Of a stretch of 64,000 nt of DNA, positions 38,871 through 61,507 are shown piece by piece; positions within the stretch are counted from its first letter, which is position 1, and each line of letters starts with the position of its first letter. The notes under the pieces are model-generated. The model was not told where the DNA came from. It ran no database searches and saw only the letters and a list, made by a program, of their open reading frames with translations. The position numbers were made by a program, and so were the translations under genes. The stretch lies in NCBI GenBank assembly GCA_021776135.1, contig JAJFGL010000031.1, positions 4,703 through 68,702 on the forward strand, read 5' to 3'. The stretch comes from Kiloniellaceae bacterium (lineage in GTDB: Bacteria > Pseudomonadota > Alphaproteobacteria > Kiloniellales > J153).

Positions 38871-39809
38871 CTATGTCACAGACTTATCCGAGTTGAAGGA
38901 CTCCGGACGCGAGACACGCGTCTCCTCGAGCAGCCAGTCGCGGAAGGCCTCCACCTTGGGCTGCTCGGCGCCGTCTTTCGCGCTCAGCAGATAGTAGGAG
39001 AAACTGAGCGGTGTGCTGAGGCTTGGGTCGAAGGGGCGCACGAGGCGGCCGGCTGCGAGGTCGTCGGCCACCAGGATGTCGCCGATCAAAGCCACGCCGT
39101 GGCCGTCGAGCGCGGCCTGCACCGCCATGGTCTCCATGGTGAAGCGCGGCCCACGGGTCGGGTCGATGTCGTGCAAGCCGGCTGCCAGCAGCCACATACG
39201 CCAGCTCGCCTCGGCGTCTTTCCATTCGACGTGCAGCAGAGTGTGGTGGCGCAGATCGTCGGGCTGGCCCAAGGGGTGCTCGCCGCTCAAGAGTGCCGGG
39301 CTGCAGACCGGCGTGTTGACCTGGTTGAACAGCCAGTCGAGCCGCACCCCATTGTAGCCGCCGGGGCCGTAGCGCACCGCCACGTCAGCGTCGTCGCGCG
39401 CCAGGTCGACCAAACGGTCGGTGCCGTCGATGCGGATCTCGATGTCCGGGTGCCGAATGCGGAAATGCTCGAGTCGGGGCACCAGCCACATGGCGCCGAA
39501 CGAGGGGCTGACGCTGATGGTCAGCATCCCGCTCTCGCAGTGAGCGCGCATTTGCTCGACCCCTTGGGCCAGCTTGCCGAAGCCCTGGCTGAGCGTCGGC
39601 AGGGCCGCTTGGCCGGCATCGGTTAGGCGCAACGCCCGGGTCAGGCGGCGGAACAGGGGCACCTCGAGCAGCTCCTCGAGCGCCTTGACCTGGTGGCCGA
39701 TCGCGGCCGGCGTGACGTTCAACTCGGCCGCCGCTTTGGTGAAGCTGAGGTGGCGGCCGGCCGATTCGAAGGCCCTGAGAGCGTTCAGGGGCGGGAGCGG
39801 TCGAGCCAT
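38871..39809 (-). CDS. LysR-family transcriptional regulator (GcvA/AmpR-like)
   Basis: N-terminal HTH LNALRAFESAGRHLSFTKAAAELNVTPAAIGHQVKALEE. 312 aa. Confidence 0.85.
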   Translation of the reverse strand: MARPLPPLNALRAFESAGRHLSFTKAAAELNVTPAAIGHQVKALEELLEVPLFRRLTRALRLTDAGQAALPTLSQGFGKLAQGVEQMRAHCESGMLTISVSPSFGAMWLVPRLEHFRIRHPDIEIRIDGTDRLVDLARDDADVAVRYGPGGYNGVRLDWLFNQVNTPVCSPALLSGEHPLGQPDDLRHHTLLHVEWKDAEASWRMWLLAAGLHDIDPTRGPRFTMETMAVQAALDGHGVALIGDILVADDLAAGRLVRPFDPSLSTPLSFSYYLLSAKDGAEQPKVEAFRDWLLEETRVSRPESFNSDKSVT

Positions 39810-39828
39810 TATCTATATCCTAGTTTTT

Positions 39829-39863
39829 CTAACAAATCAGCCGAGACCTTCTCGTTTGTTGAG
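39829..39863. promoter_or_regulatory. Nested inverted repeat in the LysR divergent promoter region (ctAACAAA-N18-TTTGTTgag with internal GAGA-cct-TCTC)
   Basis: Read directly. Located 20 nt upstream of the lysR start, in an AT-rich divergent intergenic region. Candidate LysR-type binding site. Confidence 0.3.
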
Positions 39864-40005
39864 GGTCCTAGATATGCATACATTTTTATTATTCAAGGCC
39901 GAATCGCACCGATACCGGTGCGGCGTAGGCAGCCTCATAGGTCAAATAAATCTAGACCATGGGAGTGTCGGCGAGCGGTCAGACCGAAACCCGATGGAGG
40001 GCTCC

Positions 40006-40407
40006 ATGAACCCCTATTACGAGCTTCCCAATCTCGGCAGAAGTTTCCAGCAGGCTCACGCCGACCGGGCCAAGCGGCCAGACCGCCAGATCGGCGGAAT
40101 CACAAGCATCGTCGCCTTGTGGCTTGTCAATGTCCTGGAATCGGCGGCTCTCCGGACTGTCGGCGGGATCTCCCGCTGGCGCCGGCGGCGCACCGCGATC
40201 CGCGAGCTCCAGGCCTTAAGCGACTACTACCTGACGGACATCGGGTTGGACCGCTCCCAGATTGTCGCGACGGTCGAGAAAAACATCGAGACCGGCAGTC
40301 AGCCGGCTTGGTGCCACGCCCGCTTCTGGTGCGGTGACGGCATCGGCCCGGACTCTCGTGAAATTCACGGAGAATCCCTAGGCTCGACCGAGGAAAAGCC
40401 AGCATGA
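40006..40407 (+). CDS. DUF1127-domain protein with unusual extensions
   Basis: Core RWRRRRTAIRELQALSDYYLTDIGLDRSQI matches the DUF1127 pattern. Start uncertain. Stop overlaps the start of the downstream EamA gene (ATGA). Confidence 0.5.
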   Translation: MNPYYELPNLGRSFQQAHADRAKRPDRQIGGITSIVALWLVNVLESAALRTVGGISRWRRRRTAIRELQALSDYYLTDIGLDRSQIVATVEKNIETGSQPAWCHARFWCGDGIGPDSREIHGESLGSTEEKPA

Positions 40408-41477: not shown

Positions 41478-42866
41478 TTAACGGGCGGCGCTTCGCCGGA
41501 ATTGAATGTCGTTTCGTCCCTCGAGATACCCATGAACCGCCAGGGCCGTTTCCTGGGCCAGGTGCAGGCAGTTCGCGACCGAGGGGCCGGCGAGGTAATT
41601 TCCGGTCAGGAACAGGCCTTCGTGCCGCCTAGCGGTGGTTCGTAGAACCTCGGCCAGGCCTTGGTGGCCGATTTCGTACTGCGGCAGGCCGAGCGGCCAA
41701 TGGCGCACCCGGGCGATGCTGGGTTCGCCTTCGGCGCCAATCAGATCGCGAAACTCCGACCTCGCCAGGCGGATCAATTCAGGCCCCGGAAGGCGGGCCA
41801 TATGAGGCGCCCGGGCGCCCCCTATATAGGCGGATACGGCGACATGCCCCGCGGGCGCGCGGCCCGGGAACATGGTCGAACAGAACTGAGCGCCGATAAG
41901 CTTGCGGTTTTCCGCTTCGGCGGTGAGGAAGCCGAGGCCGTCCAGGGAATGGGCGACCTGGCGGCGGGGATAGCCCAGGAACACCACTGCCATGGGCGGC
42001 GCATGTATGCGCCCTGCCGCCGTGGCGGCTTGCGGATCGAGGCCGGCAAGCAGTTGCGCCGCCACATGGGCCTGGGTGGCGACGATGACGGATTTCGCCT
42101 GCAAACGCCCCTGCGGGCCAAGATCGATCGTGAAGCCGCCATGACAGGGCGATATCCGCCGCACCGTGGCGCCGGTTCGGATCCTGTTCCCCAAGCCTAG
42201 GGCCAGCGCCCTGGGCAGGGCCGCGATACCGTCGCGCCAGGAAAACAGCCGGCTGCCCGGCATTTTCCCGCCTTCGCGCCGGGCGTGCATGGCGCCCAGG
42301 GAAACGGAGCCGTATTTTTCCTCCAGGGCCACCAGCTTGGGAAAGATAGCCGAGACCGACAGCGCCGAGGCGCGGCCGCCGTAAATACCGGCGACCATGG
42401 GATCGATAATGCGTTCCGCGAATTCCTTGCCGAAGCGGCGCGAACAAAAGTCCATCACCGTCTCGTCCTTGCCGCCGCTTCTTTGCGGCAAAAGAAAATC
42501 CGCCAAGATGCGCAGCTTAGCCATGGGCGACAGATAGGACGCCGTTAGCATCCCAAGCGGCCCCGTGGAGATCGCGGAAAGTTTCCCCGCCGATACGAGA
42601 TAGCGGTTGCGAACCCCCACGCCGAGGTCGCAGCGCTGAGCGTCGAGACCGAGTTCGCTCGAGATTTGCCCGGCAGCAGGAATGTGCGCGTTCATGGTGC
42701 TGGGCCCATGTTCCATGAGGAAACCGCCGAGACGCTCGGTGATGGCGCTGCCGCCGGTGTGGGTTTGACGTTCGAGAAGGGTGACCTTGTGTCCACGGCT
42801 GGCGAGGCCGTGGGCCGCGGCCAGGCCGGAAACCCCGCCGCCGATGACGACGGCATCGCGGGTCAT
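41478..42866 (-). CDS. FAD-dependent protoporphyrinogen/coproporphyrinogen oxidase (HemY/CgoX family)
   Basis: Start set at Met 42866 (ATGA overlap with the radical SAM stop). Dinucleotide fold VVIGGGVSGLAAAHGLA...LLERQTHTGG...EHGPST. C-terminal LFLTGNYLAGPSVANC is typical of HemY. Confidence 0.7.
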   Translation of the reverse strand: MTRDAVVIGGGVSGLAAAHGLASRGHKVTLLERQTHTGGSAITERLGGFLMEHGPSTMNAHIPAAGQISSELGLDAQRCDLGVGVRNRYLVSAGKLSAISTGPLGMLTASYLSPMAKLRILADFLLPQRSGGKDETVMDFCSRRFGKEFAERIIDPMVAGIYGGRASALSVSAIFPKLVALEEKYGSVSLGAMHARREGGKMPGSRLFSWRDGIAALPRALALGLGNRIRTGATVRRISPCHGGFTIDLGPQGRLQAKSVIVATQAHVAAQLLAGLDPQAATAAGRIHAPPMAVVFLGYPRRQVAHSLDGLGFLTAEAENRKLIGAQFCSTMFPGRAPAGHVAVSAYIGGARAPHMARLPGPELIRLARSEFRDLIGAEGEPSIARVRHWPLGLPQYEIGHQGLAEVLRTTARRHEGLFLTGNYLAGPSVANCLHLAQETALAVHGYLEGRNDIQFRRSAAR

Positions 42867-44140
42867 TGTTCCGGCGTCCCGATACCGGGCGGCCGCCCGC
42901 CGAAGCGGGCGCGGGCTGTTTTCGCCAAGAGCGCCATCACCTCGGCCGTGACCTCGCACCCCTGTTCAGCCAGAACATGGCCTTCGGCTCTTTGGCGAAC
43001 GAATTGGCGGACGAAAGAGGGTATCCGCGCCAGCCATTCCTCCGCTTCCGGGGTCCAACGCAGACTGCCGGCATCCTTGTTCAGGGGCTCGATAACCGGA
43101 CCGCCTTGCGGCTCGTAGGCGCAGAGGAAATCCTCACCCATGAGCTGGCCGTCGCGGGCCAGGGGCCGGGCCCGGCAGCCACCGCAAATCTTTGAGTACT
43201 CGCAAGACCCGCAGCGTCCCTCCAGGACCGGCTTTCGCAACGCCTGGAACTGCGGCGCATCGCGCCAAATTTCGGCGATGCCCTGCGCGCGGATGGAGCC
43301 CACCTCCTGTTCCATGTAAGGGCAGGCCGTGACTCCGCCCAAGGGCGTGATCCGGCAATAGCGGGTCCCGGCCAGGCAGCCGCCGGCTTCGTAGCCGTGA
43401 GCGGCGGTGATCGGCCAGTCCGGGTCCAATTCCCAGGCCATGCGCTTGAAGTGCGGCGCGCACTTGGCCCGGATCATGATGTCCGTCTCCTGCTTGGCCG
43501 CTAGCGTCAGCTTGCGCATGACCCGGTCGTAGGATTGCGCGGAGATGTTGGTCATCTGTTCGCCGCGGCCGGTGCAAACCAGGAAGAAGACGTTGAGAAC
43601 GAAGGCCCCGGCGTCGCGCGCGAAAGCGATCATATCGTCGAGTTCGTGGGCGTTGTCGTCGGTGACCGAGAAATGAAGCTGAAAGCGTAAATCGTTGCGG
43701 CGGCAGGAATCAATGCCGGCCATGGCCAGTTCCCAGGAACCGGGCAGCCCGCGAAAGGCGTCGTGGGCTGCGGCGTCGAGGGAATCCAGGCTGATCCCCA
43801 CGCCTTGCGCCCCGGCCTCCTTCAAGGCCAGGACCCGCCGGTCGTTGAGGCCCATGCCGTTGGTGCCGATCACCGCCATGAGCCCCAAGCCCGTGGCATG
43901 GGCGACAAGTTCCGCGAGGTCGGCCCGCAACAGCGGCTCGCCGCCGGTAAAGACGACCATGATCTCATCGCTAAGCGCGGCGATGTCGTCCAGCAGCGCC
44001 GTCACTTCCGCCGTGGACAGTTCACCTGAGGCGTCGCTTTCCCGGGTGCCGGCGTCGAGATAGCAGTGCGCGCAGTTCAGGTTGCACCGGCGGGTCAGGT
44101 TCAGGGCGATCAGGAAAGGCGGGGGGAGTGTATCTGCCAT
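42863..44140 (-). CDS. Radical SAM/SPASM-domain enzyme (AhbD/NirJ-like) with C-terminal PCP_red-like domain
   Basis: CNLNCAHCY (CX3CX2C). C-terminal Cys clusters (GGCLAGTRYC, ACPYM, CGSCEYSKICGGCRA). Tail LRWTPEAEEWLARIPSFVRQFVRQRAEGHV resembles the ChlB/BchB C-terminal domain. Start set at MADTLPPPF. Confidence 0.8.
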   Translation of the reverse strand: MADTLPPPFLIALNLTRRCNLNCAHCYLDAGTRESDASGELSTAEVTALLDDIAALSDEIMVVFTGGEPLLRADLAELVAHATGLGLMAVIGTNGMGLNDRRVLALKEAGAQGVGISLDSLDAAAHDAFRGLPGSWELAMAGIDSCRRNDLRFQLHFSVTDDNAHELDDMIAFARDAGAFVLNVFFLVCTGRGEQMTNISAQSYDRVMRKLTLAAKQETDIMIRAKCAPHFKRMAWELDPDWPITAAHGYEAGGCLAGTRYCRITPLGGVTACPYMEQEVGSIRAQGIAEIWRDAPQFQALRKPVLEGRCGSCEYSKICGGCRARPLARDGQLMGEDFLCAYEPQGGPVIEPLNKDAGSLRWTPEAEEWLARIPSFVRQFVRQRAEGHVLAEQGCEVTAEVMALLAKTARARFGGRPPGIGTPEQ

Positions 44141-44153
44141 GGATTGCCCCCGG

Positions 44154-45803
44154 TCATTCCTTGTCCGCTTCGGGGGGCACCGGGCACATGGCCTTGCGTG
44201 CCTCGGCCACGGCTTCTTCCGCCAACTCCAGAGAAATTTCCTTGAGGCCGCGTTCAAGCGCCAAGTCCTCGACGCTCGCCTTCACCGGCTCGCGGACCAT
44301 GGCCGGCACCTTGGCGACCCGGGCCAGGGCCGCCGCCGTCCAGACCGGCCGGTCGTCGGCGTCCAGGTCGAGAAACGGCGTCACATGCTTCGGCAAGACC
44401 TCGCCGCTGTGATCGCGCCGGGCGCGCTTGATGGCGCGCAGCCGGATGTTATCGGCGACCGCCGGGTCGGGAAGCTTGGCGAGCAGCTTCAGGGCCGCTT
44501 TGCTCCAGGTCAGCTGTGCCCCGCCGCCCGGCTTGTTGGCGGCGAAACCCGGCATGGCCTTGCCCATGACCTCGTCCACGAGATCGGAGGTGACGAAGGT
44601 GTGGCCCAGTTTCTGGACGTGGCGCAGGACCATGCGCCGGGCCATGTCGCGGACGAATTCCGGCGCCCGGGAAATCTTCTTCTCGGCCTCGAGGCTCCAG
44701 GCCACGGTTTCCTCGGCCACCACGTCGAGAGGCGGGGTATAGACGCTCTGGGTCAGCCACATATGACAGGGCGCCAGACGCAGCAGGTTTTCCGCGTTGC
44801 CGCCGATGTCCAATTCGCCGTCGGCGTGAACCCCGGTCTTGCCGACCACCAGCAAACTGGCGCCGACTTCTTCCAGGTAGGTCAGGATGGCCTTGTAGGG
44901 CTTGCCGTCCAAAAGCTTGGTCGCGATCTTGACCCCCAGGCCCTCGGCCAGGGTCTCGGCCACCTCCAGGTGCGACTGGTAGATCTTGGCGATGCCGTCG
45001 TCGATGAGCTCCTCGTGCAGGGCTTCCTGTTCCTTGAAGCGGAAGACCTTGCCGGCTTCCTCGCTGAGCACGTCCGCGATCTTGTTGAAGGCGACGTAGT
45101 GGTAATAAGGATCGTAGGCGGCGATCGCATGAACCTCCGCCCCGGTCCGGGCCGCCAGGTCGAGGGCGGTCATGAGGGCGCCGTAGGATAGCGGCGAGCC
45201 GTCGATACCGGCGACGATGGGACCGTCGCCTATCGCCTTCTTGGGGTCGCGGACGACGAAGGTATCGATGGGCGAGCGGCGCACGACGCGCTCCGCGACG
45301 GTGCCGATGAGGCTACCCGGCACCGCGCCCAGGCCCAAGGCCCCCAGGGCCAGCACGTCGTAGTCGCCGCTACGCGCCGCCTCCACCACCTTGGTGTAGT
45401 TCTTACCTTCGGGGCTGAGCCGCTTGAAGGTCACGCCGCCCTCGTCGCAGGCCGCCCTGCCGGCATCGTGGTAAGAATCGGAGATGATGCTGAGGCCGCG
45501 CGTTATCAGGTCGTCGTGAACCTCGCGCTGATGACCCATCTCCTGCTCGTCCAGATACCTCTCCGGCAGTCCGCCTTCCATCATCTTGAAACGGCGGTCG
45601 TGGAGCAGGGCCGCATAGGCGTGAATGCCGGTGATCGTGCCGGCGGCGGACTTGGTCAGGCGGATCGCCTCTTCGAGCGCCTTGTTGGCGTGCTCGGAAG
45701 CATCCAGGGCCACCAGAATACGCGCCAAGGGCACGGGCGCCGTGTCCGCCGGGCGGGAATCGGCCGCCGTCTCGGCGGTTTGCGGGGATAAAGAAGGTGT
45801 CAT
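44154..45803 (-). CDS. Tandem universal-stress-protein domains fused to three PCP_red-like repeats
   Basis: Two USP units (ILVALDASEHANKAL...; IVAGIDGSPLSYGAL...). Three W-x-x-(E/A)A...(I/L/V)P motifs follow (VAWSLEAEKKISRAPEFVRDMARR; LTWSKAALKLLAKLPDP; PVWTAAALARVAKVPAMVRE). Confidence 0.7.
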   Translation of the reverse strand: MTPSLSPQTAETAADSRPADTAPVPLARILVALDASEHANKALEEAIRLTKSAAGTITGIHAYAALLHDRRFKMMEGGLPERYLDEQEMGHQREVHDDLITRGLSIISDSYHDAGRAACDEGGVTFKRLSPEGKNYTKVVEAARSGDYDVLALGALGLGAVPGSLIGTVAERVVRRSPIDTFVVRDPKKAIGDGPIVAGIDGSPLSYGALMTALDLAARTGAEVHAIAAYDPYYHYVAFNKIADVLSEEAGKVFRFKEQEALHEELIDDGIAKIYQSHLEVAETLAEGLGVKIATKLLDGKPYKAILTYLEEVGASLLVVGKTGVHADGELDIGGNAENLLRLAPCHMWLTQSVYTPPLDVVAEETVAWSLEAEKKISRAPEFVRDMARRMVLRHVQKLGHTFVTSDLVDEVMGKAMPGFAANKPGGGAQLTWSKAALKLLAKLPDPAVADNIRLRAIKRARRDHSGEVLPKHVTPFLDLDADDRPVWTAAALARVAKVPAMVREPVKASVEDLALERGLKEISLELAEEAVAEARKAMCPVPPEADKE

Positions 45804-45873: not shown

Positions 45874-45887
45874 TTGATCTCCCTCAA
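45874..45887. promoter_or_regulatory. FNR/FixK-type box, one mismatch (TTGATCTCCCTCAA)
   Basis: Fits TTGA-N6-TCAA. Centre lies about 77 nt upstream of the USP gene ATG (45803) and overlaps the stop of the small membrane ORF. Confidence 0.4.
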
Positions 45888-46090
45888 GCGCGGTTGCGCC
45901 GGATCGCCCCGATCATGCAAAGCAACAGCCCGGCCGCGATGAGCATGGCGTGAAAGGGGACGATCTCGAGACCGCCGCGCCACGACAGCATGGTGTTGAG
46001 CCACCCCAGGATAATCAGGATAACGCCGAAGATACGAAAGACGGCGCCCCGGCTTCTATCAGGTAACGATTCCTGTGCCTCATCCCTCAT
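45884..46090 (-). CDS. Small two-TM membrane protein (68 aa) coupled to the cytochrome c/EB_dh gene
   Basis: ATGA start/stop overlap with the upstream gene. Two hydrophobic helices (VFRIFGVILIILGWL; AMLIAAGLLLCMIGAI). Confidence 0.5.
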   Translation of the reverse strand: MRDEAQESLPDRSRGAVFRIFGVILIILGWLNTMLSWRGGLEIVPFHAMLIAAGLLLCMIGAIRRNRA

Positions 46091-47622
46091 GGTGCCCGAG
46101 TCCTCGCGCTACGTCCCCACCAAATCAGAATCGCGCCGAGCAAAAGCGTAACGGCGATGGCGGCTATGATGGGCCGGGCACTAGCCGAGGGTTTCAGCAG
46201 CAGCCAGTACCAGGTGGTCATGGCGTGATGCGATCCGGCTTCGCCGTTGGAGCCGTCCCAGGCGAAAAAGGCGATGGGAATGAAACGCCCTTCCTCGAAC
46301 TGCAAGTCCTGGTCCGCGGCCCCGGTTATCAGTGGCCGGGTCATGACCACGCGCCAGGTGCCGGCCTTGTAGCTGCTCTTGGCCGTGAGGCCGCCGGCAT
46401 CGCGCATTTGTTGCTCGGCTATTCCCATGGCGTCGATCATGGCGACGCTTTCCGCTTCCTCCGTGGTGCCGCCGGACCAGCGCCAGAGATTGACCGGCTT
46501 GGCCGCGTCGCCCATGAGGAAATAGGGTTTCTCCATGCCGGCGGGGAGCGTCACCGGGAACTGCACGGCGACGGCGTCTTCGGTCAGGTCTTCGTCGGCG
46601 ATACTCAGGGCCTTAGGGTCGCCGGGGATGCTCTTCGTCCGGTCGTCCCATTCCAGATGCAGGCCGATTTTATCGCCGTTATAAAGGGCGCGGACGCTGA
46701 GCGTGTCGTTGGCGGCGGTGAAGAACCGCGTTTCGCCGACGATCTGCGGAACCATGAAAAAGGTTGAGGGCGGCGCCGCATCCCAGGCGGGATCTTCGGG
46801 CGAGGAGGGAATCTCCCCCTCCAGGCGCGCCGCCTGAATGACCGTGTTCGCGGGCCGCACGACCTTTTCCGTCTTGGCCAGGGAGGTCACGTAGTTGGCG
46901 ACGTGCCAGCGTTCCTCGATGCTCAACTTCTTCTTGCTCTTGGGGTCGGCGAAGGAGGGCATCTGTGTGGTCGGGATGCCCGCGGTGATTCGGTTGAAGA
47001 CGTCCTTGGGGTCGTTGCTGGCGCGGAAGGTCCAGGGCTTGGTTAGGTTCCGGGGCCAGGTTCGGTCGCCGTTGTCGTTTTTCAGCTTCTTGATGGCGTC
47101 GCCCTTGCCCTCGGCGCCATGGCATTCCGAACAGCGGTCGTCGGCGTGAAAGAGCGTCTTGCCGGCGGCGATGCTTTCCGCCGAGGTCGCGACCTGGGCA
47201 CCGTAATCCACCTGAGTTTCAGGTTCGCCCTCCAATTCCGCGAAGGTTTTGATATAGGCGATGACGTCCCACATGTCCTGTTCGTTCAGCAGGCCGCTCC
47301 AGCCCGGCATGGCGGTGCCGGGCATGCCGTCGCGGACCATGCGGAGCAGGTCGCCGTCGTTGGGCAAGTCCTCGTCGAAGGGCGTGGACTTGAACTTGTA
47401 GAGGCCGAAGGTGAAATCGCGCGGCGGCGGGTTCAGGCGCTCGGCGGCCGGGCCGAGGCCGTCGCCGTCCTCGCCGTGGCACTGCAGGCAGCGCTTCGCG
47501 TAGATGGCCTCGCCATTTTCCTCGTCGCCCGGTGCGGCCATGGCCGGGCCCAGATAAAGCGCCAGAAATCCGGCGGCAAAGACCGGCGGGAGGTATTTTT
47601 TCAGCCCGCCGCCCGCCATCAT
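46087..47622 (-). CDS. Diheme cytochrome c fused to EB_dh (DMSO-reductase type II heme-b subunit-like) domain with C-terminal TM anchor (module 1)
   Basis: Signal peptide. CLQCH and CSECH. C-terminal half has the EB_dh pattern (VRALYNGDKIGLHLEWDD..., AVQFPV..., FFAWDGSNGE). Terminal helix IIAAIAVTLLLGAILIWW. Confidence 0.8.
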   Translation of the reverse strand: MMAGGGLKKYLPPVFAAGFLALYLGPAMAAPGDEENGEAIYAKRCLQCHGEDGDGLGPAAERLNPPPRDFTFGLYKFKSTPFDEDLPNDGDLLRMVRDGMPGTAMPGWSGLLNEQDMWDVIAYIKTFAELEGEPETQVDYGAQVATSAESIAAGKTLFHADDRCSECHGAEGKGDAIKKLKNDNGDRTWPRNLTKPWTFRASNDPKDVFNRITAGIPTTQMPSFADPKSKKKLSIEERWHVANYVTSLAKTEKVVRPANTVIQAARLEGEIPSSPEDPAWDAAPPSTFFMVPQIVGETRFFTAANDTLSVRALYNGDKIGLHLEWDDRTKSIPGDPKALSIADEDLTEDAVAVQFPVTLPAGMEKPYFLMGDAAKPVNLWRWSGGTTEEAESVAMIDAMGIAEQQMRDAGGLTAKSSYKAGTWRVVMTRPLITGAADQDLQFEEGRFIPIAFFAWDGSNGEAGSHHAMTTWYWLLLKPSASARPIIAAIAVTLLLGAILIWWGRSARTRAP

Positions 47623-48386
47623 TCGTTCCCCCAGGTTCGCGGCGAATGGCCCGTGTAATCATAGAGGAACAGGATCGTTTTCCAGATCTCGTCTTCCTTA
47701 AGGAAATTCTGCCAGACCGGCATGGAGGAAATCCAAGGCGCCGCCTCCTTCGGCAAGCCTGGGCCGCCGGTGGCAATGCGCCAGAACAAATAGGATTCCT
47801 GAAGCTGGGCGATGGTGCCCACGTCCTGGAAATTGAGCGGCGTCGGGTTCAGGCCGGCCGCATAGGGGCCGTTGCCGTCGAGCTTGTCGCCGTGGCAGTA
47901 CTGGCAGTTCTGGATATAGACGGCGGCGCCTTCCTCAACCAATTCGCGGAATTGCTCCGGGTCTTCCTTCTCCAGCTTCCTGAAGGGGTTTTCCAGCTTC
48001 AGGAGATTGACCCGCTTACCGTAAATCTTGGCCGTGGTCGGCGGCGCCGGGTGGATGGTGCGCAACTCCAACGGCGCTTCGAAGCTGGGCTGCATCTGCA
48101 CGTAGGTGCCGGCCCCCGCCGCCAGCGGGACGATAACGAAAACGATGTTGCGCCACACGCGCTTGCTCGGATCCTCGACCAGGGCCTTGATGGGGGCGAC
48201 CAACTCGCGCGTCCCTTCCTCGTCGTAGGTAAAGACCATGAACACCCCGGCGGTGACGAAAAACATGTACATGACCAGCAGGCTGGACGGGATCACCGCC
48301 TCGAGGATCACGTCGAAGACGACGATAAAACCGAAATAGACCCCGGCCAGGACCAGCACGGCCTGCAGCAACTTGGGAATTCTCAT
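47619..48386 (-). CDS. Membrane-anchored monoheme cytochrome c (module 1)
   Basis: Hydrophobic N-terminal helices, one CQYCH motif. C-terminal WRIATGGPGLPKEAAPWISSMPVW is shared with its module-2 paralog. Confidence 0.8.
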   Translation of the reverse strand: MRIPKLLQAVLVLAGVYFGFIVVFDVILEAVIPSSLLVMYMFFVTAGVFMVFTYDEEGTRELVAPIKALVEDPSKRVWRNIVFVIVPLAAGAGTYVQMQPSFEAPLELRTIHPAPPTTAKIYGKRVNLLKLENPFRKLEKEDPEQFRELVEEGAAVYIQNCQYCHGDKLDGNGPYAAGLNPTPLNFQDVGTIAQLQESYLFWRIATGGPGLPKEAAPWISSMPVWQNFLKEDEIWKTILFLYDYTGHSPRTWGNE

Positions 48387-48396
48387 TGCCGCCTCC

Positions 48397-49218
48397 TCAC
48401 TTCAAACCGGCCAGGTAATCCAGCAGGATTTCCAGTTCCGCGACGTACATGGCCTCGCCCATATCCTCCGGCATCATGTCTTCTTCGAAGCCCTCGGCGA
48501 TATCGGCGTTGGGGTCCAGGATCGCGCGGCGGAGGTAGTCCCGGTCGCGGCTGGCGCCGATCCGGGTCAGGTCGGGCCCGACCTCGCCGCCTTCGCCGCC
48601 GATCGCGTGACAGGCGTCGCAGGTGAAAAGGGCCATGAGTTCCTGGGGGTCGGCGATGGCTTCGCGCGCTTCGCTCTCGTCTTCTTCGTCTTCTTCGTCT
48701 TCTTGCGCGCCTATGTCCTGAGGTACCTCGACCGTGACCTCGGCGCCGCTGGAATCCTGGAGATAGGCGACAACGGCCGCGACCTCGGCCTCGGACATGC
48801 CGATACCGCCGCTGGCGACATTCGGCATGGGGCTTTCGGTATCGTTGGTGCCTTTCTTGCCGAAACCGATGACCACGAAGGCCGAAGGATCGATCAGCGA
48901 CTCGGTCAGGTATTCCTCGACAGTTGCGGCCTCGCCCTCGTAGCGGGGATCTTCCAGGCGCCCTGCCGCGACCTCGCCGATCGCCGCCAACTCGGGCGCC
49001 CGGCCCAGGGAATTATGACAAAGGGTGCAGGTGCCCTTGCCGTTGAAGAGCCTCTCGCCCAGGGCGATAAAGCCGTCCAGGGTCATGGACCCGAGGTCGA
49101 GCTTTTCTTCCTTGGGCGGCGGCGCCGGTTCGATCTGCGGTATGCCGTAATTGGAATAGCCGGCGAAAAAGCCGATGGTCAGCAGGGTAAAGACAACCAC
49201 GGTGAGGAACTGGCGCAT
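48397..49218 (-). CDS. Membrane-anchored diheme cytochrome c (module 1)
   Basis: N-terminal TM helix, CTLCH and CDACH motifs. Acidic linker QEDEEDEEDESEA. Start shares 1 nt with the bd-like gene stop. Confidence 0.8.
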   Translation of the reverse strand: MRQFLTVVVFTLLTIGFFAGYSNYGIPQIEPAPPPKEEKLDLGSMTLDGFIALGERLFNGKGTCTLCHNSLGRAPELAAIGEVAAGRLEDPRYEGEAATVEEYLTESLIDPSAFVVIGFGKKGTNDTESPMPNVASGGIGMSEAEVAAVVAYLQDSSGAEVTVEVPQDIGAQEDEEDEEDESEAREAIADPQELMALFTCDACHAIGGEGGEVGPDLTRIGASRDRDYLRRAILDPNADIAEGFEEDMMPEDMGEAMYVAELEILLDYLAGLK

Positions 49219-51011
49219 TAGTCCTTCCAGTACCCGGCCGGCAGCGTCTTATCGCTACTGACCTGGGCGATCCAGAAGACGAAAATCACCATGGCCATGA
49301 AAATGATCGCGGCCACGGAGACCACATTGGCGGCATAGCCCAGGGTCGGCGTGAAGGCGTCCGGCGAGGCGTCGCGCATGATGTCGAGAACGTGCCAATG
49401 CTGGCGGATGCCGGAGCGGATGTAGCCCATCAGCCCCATGAGCCAGGTGAAGGCGACGGCGAGCAGGAACAAGGCGTACTGGGCCCGCTCCGGTATCCGC
49501 CCCCAATGCAGCGGCCCGACCTCCTTGCCGCCCCGGTAGATAAAGGAATCCAGGGCGATGCTGCCGGCGATGACAACCAAGGTGGTCAAGACCTGCGGGA
49601 TCGAGGCCGCGACCTTGTAAACCGTGTTGGTGAAGTAGCCGTGATAGATGCCCAGGAATAGGATGTTGGCGATGCCGGCCGCATAAAGCGCCACCTGTAT
49701 GGCGTTGCCGGCCTTGACCCAGGGCACGGTGGCGACCTTGTTGGCGCGCCGGTAGAACATGAAACTCAGCGCCGTGAAAATAATCATCACGTTCACCGCC
49801 GTGTTCTTGGCCGGCATGATGCCCAGGGGCCCGAGAATCTTGTGGTGCGGCCCGCCCAGGGCCTTCAACTCCTCGTTGGTCAGCACCAGGGTATGGGGCG
49901 TGAACCAGACCAGGAAGGCGCCGACCAGGACGATGGCGATGTATTTGATGTACTTGGTGTAGCGCTTGGCGCCGTCGCTGCGCCCCATGCCGCACCAGAG
50001 GTAATAGTTGGCCGAGAGGAACAGGGTGCCGATCAGCACCGCCTGGATGATGAACAGCCAGGCGAAGATGCCGCCCATGAGGGTGATCCCCATCTGCTGG
50101 CTGTAGGCGTAAATCTCGGCCGCCAGGTAGTACCCGGCGAAGGGCAGGGGCAACAGCGCGCAAATGGCGATGAAGTTGGCGTTGTACCCCATCCAGTCGT
50201 AGTGCGCGCGTTCCCGCGGCCCCGAGGCGGTCAGGAACTTGAAGGCCGCGTAGGCGCCGACGATGGAGCCGCCATAAGCGATGTTGGCGACGAAACGATG
50301 GATGTTGATGGGGTTCCAGAGGAAATTATGGATGGCGGCCCAGGCGTCGCCGCTGAAAACCCCGGCGCCATCGACACCCGCCGGGCTCATCATGAAGGTC
50401 AGCCAGGCATTGGCCAGCAACATGATCGTCGTGCCAACGGCATTGAGCACCAGGCCCAAGGTCAGATGCACCCACTTCCTGAAACCGCCCTGCAGCCAGT
50501 GCCAGCCGTAGTAATAAATGTATAGCGCCGCGCTCTCGGCGAAGAACAGCAGCGCGTAGTAGAACATGCTCTCGCGGAAAATGGTCGAGAGATAGGAAAA
50601 CAGGTGCGGATAAAACAGGATCAAGGAGAACAACAACATCCCACCCAGAATCGCGGTTAGGGAATAGGCGGTGATGGAAACCTTGATGAACTCGTAGGCC
50701 ATGTCGTCGTAGCGCTTGTCGCGGGTGCGCATGCCGATGGCTTCGATGATGAAAACGAAAATCGGCACGGCCAGGACGAAGGCCGCGAACCAGAGGTGAA
50801 GCTGGGCGAATATCCAGACCGCGACCCGGCTGTTGACGCCGGCGATGCTCGGGTAATCGGCGGCGCTGAGCTTGGGCGCCGGGGGATAAAGCCTGGCCGC
50901 CGCCTCCCCGTGCTCGGCGGCGAGGGCGCCCAACTGCTCGACGCCGGTAAAAGTAAGCGCCGCCGCGGCAAGGGCGAGCCCGATCCCGAATTTAGGGAGA
51001 GGCCGGTTCAT
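49218..51011 (-). CDS. Cytochrome bd ubiquinol oxidase subunit-I-like polytopic membrane protein (bd-like, module 1)
   Basis: 597 aa, many TM helices. CydA-like N-terminal helix with conserved His (FAQLHLWFAAFVLAVPIF). Segments YYYGW, MMSPAGVD, AHYDWMGY, LPLPFAGYY. No CydB gene adjacent. Confidence 0.75.
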   Translation of the reverse strand: MNRPLPKFGIGLALAAAALTFTGVEQLGALAAEHGEAAARLYPPAPKLSAADYPSIAGVNSRVAVWIFAQLHLWFAAFVLAVPIFVFIIEAIGMRTRDKRYDDMAYEFIKVSITAYSLTAILGGMLLFSLILFYPHLFSYLSTIFRESMFYYALLFFAESAALYIYYYGWHWLQGGFRKWVHLTLGLVLNAVGTTIMLLANAWLTFMMSPAGVDGAGVFSGDAWAAIHNFLWNPINIHRFVANIAYGGSIVGAYAAFKFLTASGPRERAHYDWMGYNANFIAICALLPLPFAGYYLAAEIYAYSQQMGITLMGGIFAWLFIIQAVLIGTLFLSANYYLWCGMGRSDGAKRYTKYIKYIAIVLVGAFLVWFTPHTLVLTNEELKALGGPHHKILGPLGIMPAKNTAVNVMIIFTALSFMFYRRANKVATVPWVKAGNAIQVALYAAGIANILFLGIYHGYFTNTVYKVAASIPQVLTTLVVIAGSIALDSFIYRGGKEVGPLHWGRIPERAQYALFLLAVAFTWLMGLMGYIRSGIRQHWHVLDIMRDASPDAFTPTLGYAANVVSVAAIIFMAMVIFVFWIAQVSSDKTLPAGYWKD

Positions 51012-51033
51012 GTTTTTCTCAAGGCCTCATCCA

Positions 51034-51150
51034 TCACTTATGAAATATCAGGCTCAGGCCCTGCATGTTCATGACCGCCACGTCGAGCAGCAGGAAGATC
51101 GCGGCGAAGGCGATCAGGGCCGCCGCGAAGGGAACTAAATAGCCATTCAT
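51034..51150 (-). CDS. Unannotated 38-aa single-TM peptide upstream of bd-like gene 1
   Basis: Hand translation: MNGYLVPFAAALIAFAAIFLLLDVAVMNMQGLSLIFHK. GGAGAA-like RBS upstream. Ends 22 nt before the bd-like ATG. Below the ORF-track size cutoff. Confidence 0.4.
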   Translation of the reverse strand: MNGYLVPFAAALIAFAAIFLLLDVAVMNMQGLSLIFHK

Positions 51151-51174
51151 GCCCGTTCTTCTCCCCCGCGTCCC

Positions 51175-51285
51175 TTAGGCCCGCACGAACCACCAGAAGA
51201 AAATCGCCAGCAGGGCCAGCACAACCATGAACAAAGCCGGCCCGGCCCAGCCAGCGCGTTCCTCTTCACCTTTTTGTTCAGTCAT
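51175..51285 (-). CDS. Unannotated 36-aa single-TM peptide
   Basis: Hand translation: MTEQKGEEERAGWAGPALFMVVLALLAIFFWWFVRA. AGGTG 7 nt upstream. The ATG may lie upstream of the start site of the putative FNR-dependent promoter. Confidence 0.3.
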   Translation of the reverse strand: MTEQKGEEERAGWAGPALFMVVLALLAIFFWWFVRA

Positions 51286-51313
51286 ATTTCAACACCTGGG
51301 AAACCCATCCAAC

Positions 51314-51327
51314 TTGATCGGGATCAA
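51314..51327. promoter_or_regulatory. Perfect FNR/CRP-family box TTGATCGGGATCAA
   Basis: Exact match to TTGAT-N4-ATCAA, in the only sizeable gap (185 nt) inside the cytochrome cluster. Minus-strand -10-like TGAAAT sits 22 nt away; plus-strand TAAGAT sits 23 nt away. Confidence 0.55.
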
Positions 51328-51362
51328 TGGACGGAGAGATTGCCTTGGGATAAGATTTGACC

Positions 51363-51464
51363 ATGCCGTCGCCCAAAAAACGCTTCGCCGACGCCGTTAT
51401 CCTCTCCGGCATGGCCGTGAACGCCGTGGTCATCGTCTTGATCCTCTATTTCTACGTCTTCTAG
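51363..51464 (+). CDS. Possible leaderless 33-aa TM peptide on the opposite strand (speculative)
   Basis: Hand translation: MPSPKKRFADAVILSGMAVNAVVIVLILYFYVF. The ATG sits about 42 nt from the FNR-box centre, where a class II promoter would start transcription. No RBS. Confidence 0.2.
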   Translation: MPSPKKRFADAVILSGMAVNAVVIVLILYFYVF

Positions 51465-51470
51465 GCAGCC

Positions 51471-51839
51471 CTATCCCTGTTTACCCTCGCACTGGCAGAG
51501 TGTGCGCAGGTGCCTGATCAGGCCATCGACCTGCTCGGCGGTCAGGGTTTTGCCCCAGGGCGGCATCATGGGCGATTTACTGACCGAGGGGCCGCCGTCC
51601 AGGATGACATTCTTCAAATCCGCGTCGGAAAGCTTGTTCATTTCCGCCGCGTTGGTGAAGTTACGCGGGCTGACGGGGAAATCCTTGGTCACGTTGGGAC
51701 CGTCGCCCTTGCCGGTCAGGCCGTGGCACTGGGCGCAATAGAACTTGAACACCTTTTCGGTCTCCGACGCCGTGGCCGGTGCCAGGGTCAGGAGAAAAAC
51801 GAACGCCGCGAAGGTTGCGATTGTCATTAGCTTTTTCAT
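51471..51839 (-). CDS. Soluble periplasmic monoheme cytochrome c
   Basis: Signal peptide MKKLMTIATFAAFVFLLTLAPATA, one CAQCH motif and a distal Met region (SPMMPPWG). Confidence 0.8.
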   Translation of the reverse strand: MKKLMTIATFAAFVFLLTLAPATASETEKVFKFYCAQCHGLTGKGDGPNVTKDFPVSPRNFTNAAEMNKLSDADLKNVILDGGPSVSKSPMMPPWGKTLTAEQVDGLIRHLRTLCQCEGKQG

Positions 51840-51853
51840 GGTCGGTCTCCCCC

Positions 51854-52516: not shown

Positions 52517-52551
52517 GACTTTCTCTCCTCCAATTTCTTTTACCGGCGGCT

Positions 52552-55172: not shown

Positions 55173-55185
55173 GATCGCCCGCCCA

Positions 55186-56172: not shown

Positions 56173-56176
56173 GCCC

Positions 56177-59130: not shown

Positions 59131-59145
59131 GGAAAGTATCCTCCT

Positions 59146-61419: not shown

Positions 61420-61461
61420 GGTTTTGTCATCGCATCGGCTATCCTCAACTCAAACGCACTT

Positions 61462-61499
61462 GCGGGCCCGGCTGACCGCTAGGGTTCAGCCGGGCCCGC
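61462..61499 (-). other. Intercistronic stem-loop (14-bp perfect stem GCGGGCCCGGCTGA/TCAGCCGGGCCCGC, 10-nt loop)
   Basis: Read directly. Starts 9 nt after the molybdoenzyme stop codon. Followed on the minus strand by AAGTGCGTTTGAGTT (only weakly U-rich). Possible partial terminator or mRNA-stability element. Confidence 0.5.
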
Positions 61500-61507
61500 T
61501 TTAAAGT

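Follow-up and report, generated by a model that had tools for sequence, protein, structure and literature searches.

What might a universal stress protein (USP), a radical SAM enzyme (rSAM) and a HemY-family oxidase have in common, encoded side by side next to a gene cluster rich in heme proteins? To address this question we examined the window, the whole 64-kb stretch of DNA analysed here, in which the three genes lie on the minus strand in the order USP, rSAM, HemY (41478–45803). We found no description of this trio in the literature. Our reading, to which we assign a probability of about one half, is that the trio is a module for late-heme (tetrapyrrole) maturation, induced at low oxygen and dedicated to the adjacent bd-like complexes of the OR-N type; its chemistry is something we infer. 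If so, a previously undescribed module accompanies an uncharacterised family of respiratory bd-like oxidases in many phyla, and probably has the task of making or tailoring the heme of these oxidases.

The first gene (44154–45803, minus strand) encodes a tandem-USP protein of 549 amino acids with three C-terminal PCP_red repeats (Pfam Usp, E = 2.5e-34; PCP_red, E = 1.9e-21). Its stop codon is separated by 14 nt from the start of the second gene (42863–44140, minus strand), the product of which, a radical SAM/SPASM protein of 425 amino acids, also ends in PCP_red. The longest open reading frame for the rSAM extends from 42863 to 44257, but the true start codon is an ATG inside it, at 44140; its orthologs are 424–429 amino acids long. 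The third gene (41478–42866, minus strand) encodes a HemY-family FAD oxidase of 462 amino acids. Its ATG, at 42866, overlaps the rSAM stop in AACAATGACC, the ATGA coupling already described in a reading of this DNA made from the letters alone (hereafter the sequence-only reading). In related loci the gap between USP and rSAM has a median of 7 nt, and the 4-nt overlap between rSAM and HemY recurs in 56 of 71; nearly all the others have candidate HemY starts that overlap the rSAM stop by 1–14 nt. From this spacing we conclude that the trio is an operon.

Directly upstream of the trio, at 45884–46090 on the minus strand, we read the gene of a small protein of 68 amino acids with two transmembrane helices. 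It is itself ATGA-coupled to the EB_dh/cytochrome c gene upstream of it. In most loci it comes before the USP gene; in deltaproteobacterial and other distant loci a homolog lies downstream of the rSAM gene.

How might the operon be controlled? A FixK/FNR-like box had been proposed ahead of the trio, and one is present: TTGAGGGAGATCAA, at 45874–45887 (no strand assigned), precedes the USP ATG by 71 nt. It departs from TTGAT-N4-ATCAA at one position and is an exact match to TTGA-N6-TCAA. The window contains six such boxes where 1.07 are expected, a number reached in none of 100 shuffles. In 32 of 76 related loci TTGA-N6-TCAA occurs 50–100 nt upstream of the USP gene, against a background of 0.08 per kb, and across these loci the half-sites are conserved while the spacer bases vary.

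The profile for Usp (PF00582) matches the first protein with 119.3 bits over two domains, the first at residues 28–185 (45249–45722, minus strand) and the second at about residues 195–350 (44754–45221, minus strand). Domain 1 carries an ATP-type motif, G154-x2-G157-x9-G167-T168, of which the three glycines are invariant across phyla; in domain 2 the counterpart, G321-x2-G324-x9-G334-G, is degenerate. Domain 1 thus combines the HMM match with the G-x2-G-x9-G-[ST] motif that marks the ATP-binding Usp subtype, and is a predicted nucleotide binder. An AF2 model of the protein (pLDDT 69) finds its best Foldseek matches in the tandem USPs Rv2623 and TTHA0350, at E about 1e-9 and with TM-scores, normalised to the target, of 0.66–0.75. 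With these and UspE it shares the two USP domains and the G-x2-G-x9-G-T motif of domain 1. Unlike them, it has long helical inserts with invariant His, Glu and Tyr residues that span phyla, C-terminal PCP_red repeats, and a gene strictly linked to that of the rSAM. The conserved helical insert of domain 2 reads YDPYYHYVAFN...FRFKEQEALHEELIDDG, and from Alphaproteobacteria to Nitrospirota the residues D231, H235, F239, F254, E258, Q259, E260, H263 and D268 do not vary. Orthologs in 80 loci are 58–89% identical; many are about 690 amino acids long with five PCP_red repeats, and some contain a rubredoxin-like insert. The fusion of USP with PCP_red, an architecture unfamiliar to the sequence-only reading, is real and widespread, being found in 459 species-representative genomes. 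The databases label these fusions only 'universal stress protein'.

The four PCP_red-like motifs that had been noticed in the two adjacent proteins are all matched by PF08369, the gathering score of which is 32.5 bits. When each copy was scanned singly, three exceeded that score: repeat 1 of the USP protein (residues 369–411; 44571–44699, minus strand) at 40.3 bits and E = 3.3e-10, repeat 3 (residues 488–531; 44211–44342, minus strand) at 43.6 bits, and the copy in the rSAM (residues 362–402; 42935–43057, minus strand) at 48.3 bits. Repeat 2 (residues 433–469; 44397–44507, minus strand) is degenerate and falls below it (13.4 bits, E = 0.084), yet PF08369 is its sole match and it aligns with the other copies. 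In PDB 2XDQ_B the C-terminus of ChlB is matched by repeat 3 (E = 1.6e-5). The resemblance to the C-terminal domain of the DPOR subunit BchB/ChlB (2XDQ_B, 2KRU) extends to a helical module of roughly 45 residues with the signature W-x-x-E/A-A...P-x-F/M-V-R. In DPOR subunit B this helix bundle probably closes over protochlorophyllide. Here, by contrast, PCP_red is detached from any nitrogenase-like protein and from a chlorophyll context; it is repeated three to five times after the USP pair and appended to the rSAM as well.

To which family does the rSAM belong? Pfam recognises Radical_SAM (PF04055, E = 2.2e-21), SPASM (PF13186, E = 1.9e-07) and PCP_red (E = 3.5e-11). The radical SAM core (43622–44101, minus strand) has CNLNCAHC near the N-terminus, and the auxiliary Fe-S domain, SPASM, lies at 43199–43378 (minus strand). 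In an alignment of the rSAM clade the cluster-motif residues C17, C21 and C24 (of A3) are invariant, as are seven further cysteines. Among solved structures its best relatives are PqqE and SkfB. Among the NCBIfam models the best matches are NirJ2 (TIGR04055, 307.9 bits) and AhbD (TIGR04545, 307.6 bits), followed by NirJ (TIGR04051, 180.8 bits) and AhbC (TIGR04546, 165.7 bits); peptide-maturase models score at most 145 bits. The curated cut-offs are 500 bits for both AhbD and NirJ2, 515 for NirJ and 650 for AhbC. The AhbD/NirJ likeness seen in the sequence-only reading therefore stands, whereas membership does not: at 308 bits against 500 the protein is no AhbD or NirJ2 equivalog, and at 180.8 and 165.7 bits it is neither NirJ nor AhbC. 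JGI labels it 'AdoMet-dependent heme synthase'.

A tree of 105 representatives placed the rSAM on the same superfamily branch as AhbD/NirJ2 and in a separate clade whose members bear PCP_red. These score only 230–300 bits on the AhbD/NirJ2 models, with the other members at 230–283 bits on AhbD, and a true NirJ2 representative (P0273, 533 bits) sits in another clade. All 120 closest homologs have the PCP_red tail, as do about 38 of the 150 best cluster representatives. The likeness to AhbD/NirJ2, enzymes of the siroheme-dependent heme pathway, comprises a CxxxCxxC radical SAM core, a Cys-rich SPASM domain and full-length alignment to the models (positions 1–339 and 1–325, E about 1e-91). The differences are that the clade has one to four C-terminal PCP_red domains where canonical representatives have none, that its rSAM is always paired with the special tandem USP, and that its gene has bd-like oxidase genes as neighbours in place of ahbABC or nir. 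No ahb genes were found in the window or in the conserved neighbourhoods.

The third protein had been called a HemY-type FAD oxidase, and it passes the protoporphyrinogen oxidase model TIGR00562 at 260.4 bits (cut-off 97.85), with Pfam matches to Amino_oxidase (E = 1.8e-56) and NAD_binding_8. With this the domain calls of the sequence-only reading all proved correct against Pfam and NCBIfam profiles, from the four PCP_red copies and the tandem USP to the AhbD/NirJ-like rSAM/SPASM protein and the HemY-type oxidase. The best PDB match is Myxococcus xanthus PgoX (2IVD), with 229.6 bits over a full-length alignment; tobacco follows at 161.9, Bacillus subtilis CgoX (3I6D) at 160.1 and the CgoX-type protein of Exiguobacterium (3LOV) at 74.8 bits. 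Divergent HemYs of the module repeat this ranking, and by bit score HemY is most likely PgoX-like. With 2IVD and 3I6D it shares full-length homology and an FAD-binding GxGxxG N-terminus. It differs from PgoX and CgoX in being translationally joined to a radical SAM gene, in lying within a respiratory cluster and not among hem genes, and in evolving faster than its operon partners; its substrate preference is putative. HemY is the least conserved of the trio (30–57% identity where the rSAM has 52–65%). Characterised HemY is O2-dependent and rSAM enzymes are O2-sensitive, so that the two make an uneasy pairing. Moreover HemY is missing from most non-proteobacterial versions, and many lineages keep the USP and rSAM pair alone; it is therefore not essential to the core function. 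We conclude that USP and rSAM together form the core of the system, in place of a CgoX/AhbD duo, and that HemY, translationally coupled, is an optional addition.

How widely is the trio distributed? About 80 alphaproteobacterial loci (L003–L082, fetched with the USP query, plus L001 and L002) share the order USP, rSAM, HemY, which is present in every one whose contig reaches far enough. There the trio always abuts either a bd-like/cytochrome c/EB_dh block or an iodate-reductase-like block of AioA-like, HEAT and CarbPepReg genes. In Thermodesulfovibrionales and Ca. Magnetoovum (Nitrospirota) and in Dehalococcoidia (Chloroflexota), an rSAM-PCP_red protein 40–46% identical to ours and a homologous tandem USP adjoin a bd-like oxidase and two cytochromes c (sometimes with EB_dh); HemY is not adjacent to the rSAM in these three. 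The pair also occurs on soil, freshwater and marine metagenome contigs. Among 80 metagenome loci a bd-like gene was present in 32 and some gene of the cluster in 41. Where at least 2.5 kb was available on both sides, 19 of 28 loci had a cluster gene; in the other nine neither a bd-like nor a cluster gene was found within 10 kb, and a locus of the L103 type has UbiE and a B12-rSAM nearby instead. Since the synteny with bd-like, cytochrome c and EB_dh genes holds across several phyla, there is strong support for the earlier suggestion of a trio in the service of the heme-rich cluster next to it.

The presumed client occupies 46087–58327 on the minus strand (Pfam Cyt_bd_oxida_I, Cytochrom_C, EB_dh) and comprises two paralogous sets and two small cytochromes c. 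Each set contains a bd-like oxidase (597 and 716 amino acids, with about 10–14 transmembrane helices), membrane cytochromes c and a dihaem-c/EB_dh fusion (511 and 583 amino acids), and the cluster has 13 CxxCH motifs. We know of no modified heme in OR-N bd-like oxidases. The OR-N2 operon consists of a CydA-like subunit, several cytochromes c and a homolog of EbdC (EB_dh) (Murali, Gennis & Hemp 2021, supplement). By operon composition only, the context operon is assigned to this subfamily as a putative OR-N2-type bd-like oxidase. Beyond it, at 58345–63973 (minus strand), Pfam identifies genes for a periplasmic CarboxypepD_reg-like protein, a HEAT-repeat protein and an AioA/IdrA-like molybdopterin oxidoreductase. 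The last, cut by the end of the window, scores 324.8 bits on NCBIfam arsenite_ox_L, below the cut-off of 359. In related loci the block of AioA-like, HEAT and CarboxypepD_reg genes is directly upstream of the trio, and two CCP_MauG genes and a TAT-Rieske gene precede the AioA-like gene in a row. Of the iodate reductase idrABP1P2 (an AioA-like Mo subunit, a Rieske protein and two dihaem cytochrome c peroxidases) the window shows the AioA-like gene only, whereas the orthologous loci have CCP, CCP, TAT-Rieske and AioA-like genes consecutively. The cluster also contains conserved tiny membrane ORFs, and a gene for an FGE-sulfatase-family maturase adjoins some orthologs.

What might the module do for such a client? 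The rSAM could use a SAM-derived radical on the propionate groups of a (metallo)porphyrin or porphyrinogen, in an oxidative decarboxylation of the AhbD type or a related tailoring reaction, while its PCP_red tail may help to hold the macrocycle or pass it on. HemY, made in fixed proportion by virtue of the ATGA overlap, would oxidise a porphyrinogen-level species to the porphyrin. The tandem USP may be the obligatory nucleotide-binding partner of the rSAM, whether as scaffold, as regulator or in electron delivery, and in this lineage would bring three to five extra PCP_red modules. USP proteins are often merely hypoxia-induced regulators, which counts against so special a role. The product would go to heme sites in the adjacent complex. 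Genes for cofactor-specific tetrapyrrole enzymes do cluster with those of their clients, nirJ and others with nirS (heme d1) and ctaA/ctaB with cox (heme o/a). The present locus resembles these systems in setting a tetrapyrrole enzyme gene beside that of a presumed heme-enzyme client, and its rSAM is of the same superfamily as NirJ; the remaining d1 and heme a genes are absent here.

Could the trio instead simply boost bulk protoheme under hypoxia, for a cluster that needs about 20 hemes, with no dedicated hand-off and no special cofactor? The rSAM would then be an O2-independent propionate-to-vinyl decarboxylase, HemN-like (acting on coproporphyrinogen III) or AhbD-like (acting on coproheme), HemY an ordinary PgoX (or CgoX) and the USP a generic hypoxia-stress protein. 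In the protoporphyrin pathway the decarboxylase step is followed directly by that of PgoX, an order that suits the ATGA coupling, and FNR-type control would resemble that of hemN in many Proteobacteria. Recruitment of AhbD beyond the siroheme pathway is on record (PMC13564367). The nearness of HemY to a bona fide PgoX, the JGI name of the rSAM and, in the cluster, the 13 CxxCH motifs together with heme b sites point the same way. We nevertheless think it doubtful. It would leave no role for the PCP_red tail or for the conserved USP partner, the rSAM clade stands apart from AhbD and NirJ2, HemY is optional, and housekeeping heme genes are not normally found tied to a single oxidase operon in Alphaproteobacteria, Nitrospirota and Chloroflexota alike. 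A coproporphyrin side branch, as proposed in the sequence-only reading, would have HemY as CgoX, a ferrochelatase elsewhere giving coproheme, and the rSAM as an AhbD-type coproheme decarboxylase. AhbD/NirJ2 are indeed its best family matches, and AhbD is documented in organisms of the coproporphyrin pathway that have no other Ahb enzymes (PMC13564367). HemY stands beside the rSAM in Proteobacteria, where coproheme is not part of the normal pathway, and is absent from its side in Thermodesulfovibrionales, Ca. Magnetoovum and Dehalococcoidia, as would fit a coproheme-using rSAM, but this taxonomic correlation comes from few, unevenly sampled lineages. The branch is not favoured, since HemY scores nearer to PgoX (229.6 bits) than to the CgoX types of Bacillus (160.1) and Exiguobacterium (74.8); with the rSAM below the AhbD cut-off and neither the ferrochelatase cpfC nor chdC found in the 64-kb window or at any conserved cluster position, we consider it quite improbable.

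There is also the matter of protein or peptide maturation, in which the SPASM rSAM would cross-link or otherwise modify a bd-like subunit or a small neighbouring peptide, PCP_red would be a protein-recognition module and the USP–PCP_red protein an adaptor or even the substrate. Most SPASM rSAMs are such maturases, PqqE and SkfB included; the tiny membrane ORFs of the cluster could encode the peptide, the copy number of PCP_red varies like that of a docking repeat, and the FGE-sulfatase-family gene beside some orthologs would suit this account. We judge it highly improbable, for elsewhere PCP_red is familiar as part of a tetrapyrrole enzyme, many lineages have the rSAM in translational coupling with a bona fide porphyrinogen oxidase, and the tetrapyrrole rSAM models score about 160 bits or more above any peptide-maturase model.

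How are the three genes arranged? They lie head to tail at 41478–45803, with the minus strand as coding strand and a GC3 of 0.75–0.86. The first (44154–45803, minus strand; 549 residues) encodes two universal stress protein (Usp) domains followed by PCP_red (PF08369), the C-terminal domain of the DPOR subunit BchB/ChlB. The second, a radical SAM/SPASM protein that itself ends in PCP_red (rSAM–PCP_red), begins at the ATG at 44140, 14 nt past the USP stop. The start of the longest ORF, at 44257, was rejected in favour of this ATG, and the resulting 425 residues agree with the 424–429 of the orthologs. The third, a HemY-family oxidase, begins at the ATG at 42866, which overlaps the TGA of the second to give ATGA. 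Plus-strand ORFs across the trio (e.g. 41661–42200 and 44082–45191) are not real genes; family matches and conserved orthologs are found in the minus frames only.

This close spacing is general. In 56 of 71 loci the HemY gene starts 4 nt inside the end of the rSAM gene, nearly all the others having candidate starts that overlap the stop by 1–14 nt, and the median gap from USP to rSAM is 7 nt. At 71 nt upstream of the first gene stands the FNR/FixK-type box TTGAGGGAGATCAA (45874–45887), an exact TTGA-N6-TCAA with one mismatch to the FNR consensus. Of 76 loci, 32 have a box of the TTGA-N6-TCAA form 50–100 nt ahead of the USP gene, against a background of 0.08 per kb; the half-sites of these boxes are conserved and their spacer bases variable. 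From the gene spacing, the overlaps and the upstream boxes, therefore, we conclude that the trio is an operon and that, as judged from these sequences, it is in many lineages under FNR/FixK-type control of its own. A scan of the operon for sigma-70 promoters and terminators gave nothing beyond shuffled expectation. The window as a whole holds six FNR-type boxes where 1.07 are expected, a number reached in none of 100 shuffles. Four more with one mismatch are at 15968, 29972, 32371 and 33763 (plus strand). Among the further boxes, one lies just upstream of a carboxyl-transferase gene (30078–31616) and another at the 3′ end of a biotin-carrier gene, just before an OAD_beta gene (32410–33615). 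The extra boxes suggest a broader low-oxygen regulon.

The first protein matches Usp with E = 2.5e-34 and PCP_red with E = 1.9e-21 (Pfam). Scanned singly, repeat 1 (residues 369–411) scores 40.3 bits and repeat 3 (488–531) 43.6 bits, against a PCP_red gathering score of 32.5 bits. The middle repeat (433–469) is degenerate (13.4 bits, E = 0.084) and matches nothing other than PCP_red. The PCP_red of the second protein scores 48.3 bits alone. The sequence-only reading had counted four copies in the two adjacent proteins; its domain calls, ATGA coupling and FixK/FNR-like box are all confirmed, with the one sub-threshold repeat as the sole qualification. In PDB sequence searches, repeat 3 resembles the ChlB C-terminus in 2XDQ (E = 1.6e-5, residues 463–529 aligned), and repeat 1 matches the isolated domain 2KRU (residues 367–409). 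We take the role of this domain of BchB in DPOR from structures of the NB-protein. The predicted fold (pLDDT 69) matches Rv2623 and TTHA0350, tandem USPs that bind ATP, and Usp domain 1 has the nucleotide motif G-x2-G-x9-G-T; the fold search with this model returned tandem USPs only and carried no information on the PCP_red part.

What distinguishes these USPs from ordinary ones? From Alphaproteobacteria to Nitrospirota the invariant residues of the core include H61, Y63, H68, E76, H96, D231, H235, E258, Q259, E260 and H263. The invariant His, Glu and Tyr, an ExxH-like motif included, sit in long helical inserts at residues 59–100 and 230–275 (about 44980–45630 in the window), and may form a metal or ligand site, a feature that ordinary USPs lack. 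The PCP_red part varies: five copies bring many orthologs to about 690 residues, while the Nitrospirota USPs have none. The 549-residue protein is not a truncation of a 693-residue form; orthologs of about 550 residues are common, and the rSAM start follows directly. A rubredoxin-like CxxC…CxxC insert was seen in the USP–PCP_red orthologs of three distant or metagenome loci, L087 (5939–7600), L089 (3913–5850) and L103 (7736–9802). It is carried by Dehalococcoidia-type and other lineages, and in L103 it is Pfam RUBY_RBDX. Near the L089 gene are an NUBPL/Mrp-type Fe-S carrier ATPase and a stand-alone PCP_red protein. On its sequence, the insert in some USP partners hints at electron delivery.

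To which family does the radical SAM enzyme belong? A Radical_SAM core (CNLNCAHC) is followed by a SPASM domain and the terminal PCP_red. Its best curated matches (NCBIfam), aligned over their full length, are NirJ2 at 307.9 bits and AhbD at 307.6 bits, far below the 500-bit equivalog cut-offs of both; NirJ (181 bits), AhbC (166 bits) and the peptide maturases (at most 145 bits) are less close. Relatives were collected by exhaustively searching 1.84 billion cluster representatives. PCP_red is present in about 38 of the best 150, some having 2–4 copies and lengths of 600–713 residues. In a neighbour-joining tree of 105 full-length cores one clade takes nearly all the PCP_red-bearing proteins. 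It stands apart from P0273, a relative that passes NirJ2 (533 bits), from P0340, which passes TIGR04053 (488 bits), and from P0283, P0310 and P0314 (about 405 bits on AhbD). Because the clade is separate and its members score only 230–300 bits on the AhbD and NirJ2 models, the protein is, on this sequence evidence, a new subfamily of the tetrapyrrole-type rSAM/SPASM branch, without a curated model. The earlier description of it as AhbD/NirJ-like stands as to its nearest families, but it is not AhbD proper.

The third gene encodes a flavoprotein of 462 residues, which passes the protoporphyrinogen oxidase model TIGR00562 at 260.4 bits (cut-off 97.85), as the earlier call of a HemY-type FAD oxidase would have it. 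Among solved structures the nearest is the protoporphyrinogen oxidase of Myxococcus xanthus (2IVD, 229.6 bits), followed by tobacco PPO2 (161.9), the Bacillus subtilis enzyme 3I6D (160.1), which we take to be now regarded as a coproporphyrinogen III oxidase (CgoX), and that of Exiguobacterium (74.8). The same order, protoporphyrinogen oxidase (PgoX) before CgoX, is seen with divergent HemYs taken from other forms of the module. This ranking, one of bit scores and not a phylogeny, favours a PgoX-like enzyme. HemY is also the optional and least conserved member of the trio, at 30–57% identity where the rSAM has 52–65%. No canonical heme-synthesis genes were found elsewhere in the window.

Upstream of the trio two cytochrome bd-like sets occupy 46087–58327 (minus strand), each made up of a CydA homolog, two membrane cytochromes c and a dihaem-c/EB_dh fusion. 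The sets are paralogous (716/328/321/583 and 597/273/255/511 residues) and have two small cytochromes c (220 and 122 residues) between them, a double arrangement kept in dozens of loci. The block has 13 CxxCH motifs, and its bd-like proteins have about 10–14 transmembrane helices. By its gene composition the block agrees with the OR-N2 operons of Murali, Gennis & Hemp (2021). OR-N bd-like oxidases, which to our knowledge have never been characterised, are the proposed terminal oxidases of nitrite oxidisers of the Nitrospira type, of Ca. Manganitrophus and of many bacteria living at low oxygen. Two tiny single-transmembrane ORFs (51034–51150 and 51175–51285, minus strand; 38 and 36 residues) lie upstream of the 597-residue bd-like gene. 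They recall the small oxidase subunits of the CydX type, have three counterparts of 32–38 residues at the same place in the alphaproteobacterial locus L001, and are preceded by a perfect FNR box, TTGATCGGGATCAA, at 51314–51327.

Between this block and the trio is a 68-residue, two-transmembrane ORF (MRDEAQESLPDRSRGAVFRIFGVILIILGW…; 45884–46090, minus strand), ATGA-coupled to the EB_dh/cytochrome c gene. It appears to be unannotated, has only a weak DUF3325 match in Pfam, and has its stop codon overlapped by the FNR-like box. Homologs are kept in most alphaproteobacterial loci, and follow the rSAM in a deltaproteobacterial MAG and two metagenome contigs. Also upstream of the trio on the minus strand are a periplasmic CarboxypepD_reg-like protein (by family match), a HEAT-repeat protein (59146–61419; 757 residues) and an AioA-like molybdoenzyme (61508–64000), which is cut by the window end and scores 324.8 bits on arsenite_ox_L, below the cut-off of 359. 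The product of the HEAT-repeat gene, which is always placed between the other two, weakly resembles the phycobilin lyases CpcE/CpcF as well as NblB, and is possibly another cofactor-handling protein.

Is this neighbourhood kept in other Alphaproteobacteria? USP–PCP_red relatives occur in 459 species-representative genomes. The best 80 are almost all marine alphaproteobacterial MAGs (Rhodospirillales, Kiloniellaceae, Thalassospiraceae, Hyphomicrobiales and Rhodobacteraceae), and many isolate names (SI0xx, ETNP, Arabian) suggest oxygen-minimum-zone surveys. All ORFs of 82 loci were searched with the proteins of the window. The order USP, rSAM, HemY was found wherever the contig was long enough, always adjoining either the bd-like/cytochrome c/EB_dh block, usually via the 68-residue gene, or the AioA-like/HEAT/CarboxypepD_reg-like block. 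In loci of the latter kind (L022, L028, L038, L043 and others), two dihaem CCP_MauG peroxidases and a TAT-Rieske protein precede the AioA-like gene, the set of genes seen in iodate reductase clusters (idrABP1P2), here in an idrP1P2BA-like layout. Clusters of this idr type are known from marine Alphaproteobacteria in which iodate is reduced when oxygen is limiting (PMC11445184). In the iodate-reduction literature we did not find this layout described as physically linked to the trio and to bd-like oxidases. Between the CarboxypepD_reg-like and USP genes, L028, L038, L051, L054, L058, L064, L068, L071 and others encode a protein with an FGE-sulfatase (SUMF1/NirV-like) domain, which is absent from the window.

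Beyond the Alphaproteobacteria, rSAM–PCP_red members at only 40–46% identity still stand next to a homologous tandem USP. In Thermodesulfovibrionales and Ca. Magnetoovum (Nitrospirota) the two genes, in either order, directly precede a bd-like operon that runs bd-like, cytochrome c, cytochrome c, NarJ-like, 1147-residue molybdoenzyme, Fe-S subunit, EB_dh. A Dehalococcoidia MAG has the order cupredoxin, SCO1, bd-like, cytochrome c, USP–PCP_red, rSAM. The hydrothermal MAG labelled deltaproteobacterial has USP–PCP_red, rSAM and the homolog of the 68-residue protein, with no bd-like gene within 8 kb. Nitrosomonadales, Nitrospinota and Ca. Binatia also carry rSAM–PCP_red. A metagenome scan with an alignment of the distant members gave 80 loci with a GC content of 36–75%, with an adjacent USP in 45, a bd-like gene in 32, HemY in 10 and some gene of the cluster in 41; where at least 2.5 kb was available on both sides, cluster genes were present in 19 of 28. 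The typical order is USP, rSAM, bd-like, cytochrome c, cytochrome c, EB_dh, CarboxypepD_reg-like. Locus L103 (5091–7539) is an exception with no bd-like neighbour: a UbiE/COQ5 methyltransferase and a B12-binding radical SAM protein come before the USP and rSAM–PCP_red pair, and a CopD-like membrane protein after it. Because HemY is optional and the Nitrospirota USPs lack PCP_red, the invariant core is the tandem USP with rSAM–PCP_red, and its linkage to OR-N-type bd-like oxidase operons is phylogenetically deep.

What might the module do? We put the probability at about one half that it is a heme maturation module dedicated to its cluster, by analogy with nirJ, which adjoins nirS, and ctaA/B, which adjoin cox genes. 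The rSAM would act on a tetrapyrrole, because its nearest families all modify the acetate or propionate side chains of tetrapyrroles, because its tail is otherwise known from the protochlorophyllide-binding DPOR subunit, and because a porphyrinogen oxidase is translationally coupled to it in many lineages. The product would be destined for the neighbouring heme-rich complex. Such a module could provide extra O2-independent protoheme synthesis, a propionate-to-vinyl decarboxylase and PgoX performing consecutive steps; the ATGA coupling and the PgoX-like HemY are consistent with this. Or it could make a distinct, as yet undescribed heme for the bd-like active site. We propose tentatively, and think it rather unlikely as it stands, that USP and rSAM–PCP_red, with HemY in Proteobacteria, make a novel modified heme or tetrapyrrole that serves OR-N bd-like oxidases as their specific cofactor at the active site, in the way that NirJ and its partners make heme d1 for NirS and CtaA/B make heme a for heme-copper oxidases. 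In one concrete form of this idea, a propionate side chain of coproheme or protoheme would be tailored by O2-independent radical chemistry, HemY would open a route from coproporphyrinogen where the host pathway never makes coproheme, and the PCP_red modules would be portable lids holding the tetrapyrrole.

The sequence-only reading had instead envisaged a coproporphyrin branch, with HemY as CgoX and the rSAM as AhbD. Recruitment of AhbD into coproporphyrin-pathway organisms offers a precedent (PMC13564367), and such a branch would explain why HemY stands beside the rSAM in Proteobacteria and is missing there in Nitrospirota and Dehalococcoidia. The PgoX-like ranking of HemY and the lack of a linked ferrochelatase argue against it, and we disfavour it. 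Least supported is the SPASM enzyme as a protein maturase; the curated peptide-maturase models are among the less close. A PDB sequence search with the rSAM returned PqqE, SkfB and similar only, and we know of no AhbD or NirJ structure for comparison.

How much of this proposed heme maturation module is new? Its enzymes come from known families; what is new is the subfamily, together with the domain architectures, the obligatory pairing and the tie to OR-N oxidases. Public annotations of its members read 'universal stress protein', 'radical SAM protein' and 'AdoMet-dependent heme synthase' only. In the literature on PCP_red/PF08369, on bd-like with radical SAM and USP, on idr and on OR-N oxidases we found no description of the module. 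The texts returned for PCP_red/PF08369 were unrelated, and radical SAM or USP genes go unmentioned in the bd-like and idr papers, including that of Murali, Gennis & Hemp (2021) and its supplements. The module defines a new AhbD/NirJ-like radical SAM subfamily and places the orphan PCP_red domain in a setting other than chlorophyll synthesis. Its place next to bd-like oxidases in Alphaproteobacteria, Nitrospirota and Dehalococcoidia offers a genetic and biochemical handle on the cofactor content of these oxidases, and its link to iodate-reductase-like islands of oxygen-minimum-zone Alphaproteobacteria is relevant to marine iodine and oxygen cycling. If a modified cofactor is indeed made, there would be a new heme type with a new maturation pathway, serving the putative terminal oxidases of nitrite oxidisers of the Nitrospira type and of marine Alphaproteobacteria that resemble iodate reducers. 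If the module merely boosts protoheme, Proteobacteria would still have in it a late-heme route that is new, widespread and O2-independent.

Beyond the trio, the ORF at 39574–40407 (plus strand) is probably spurious, with a DUF1127 match at residues 199–230 only; the real gene, lying between those of LysR and EamA, is likely to encode a short DUF1127 protein.
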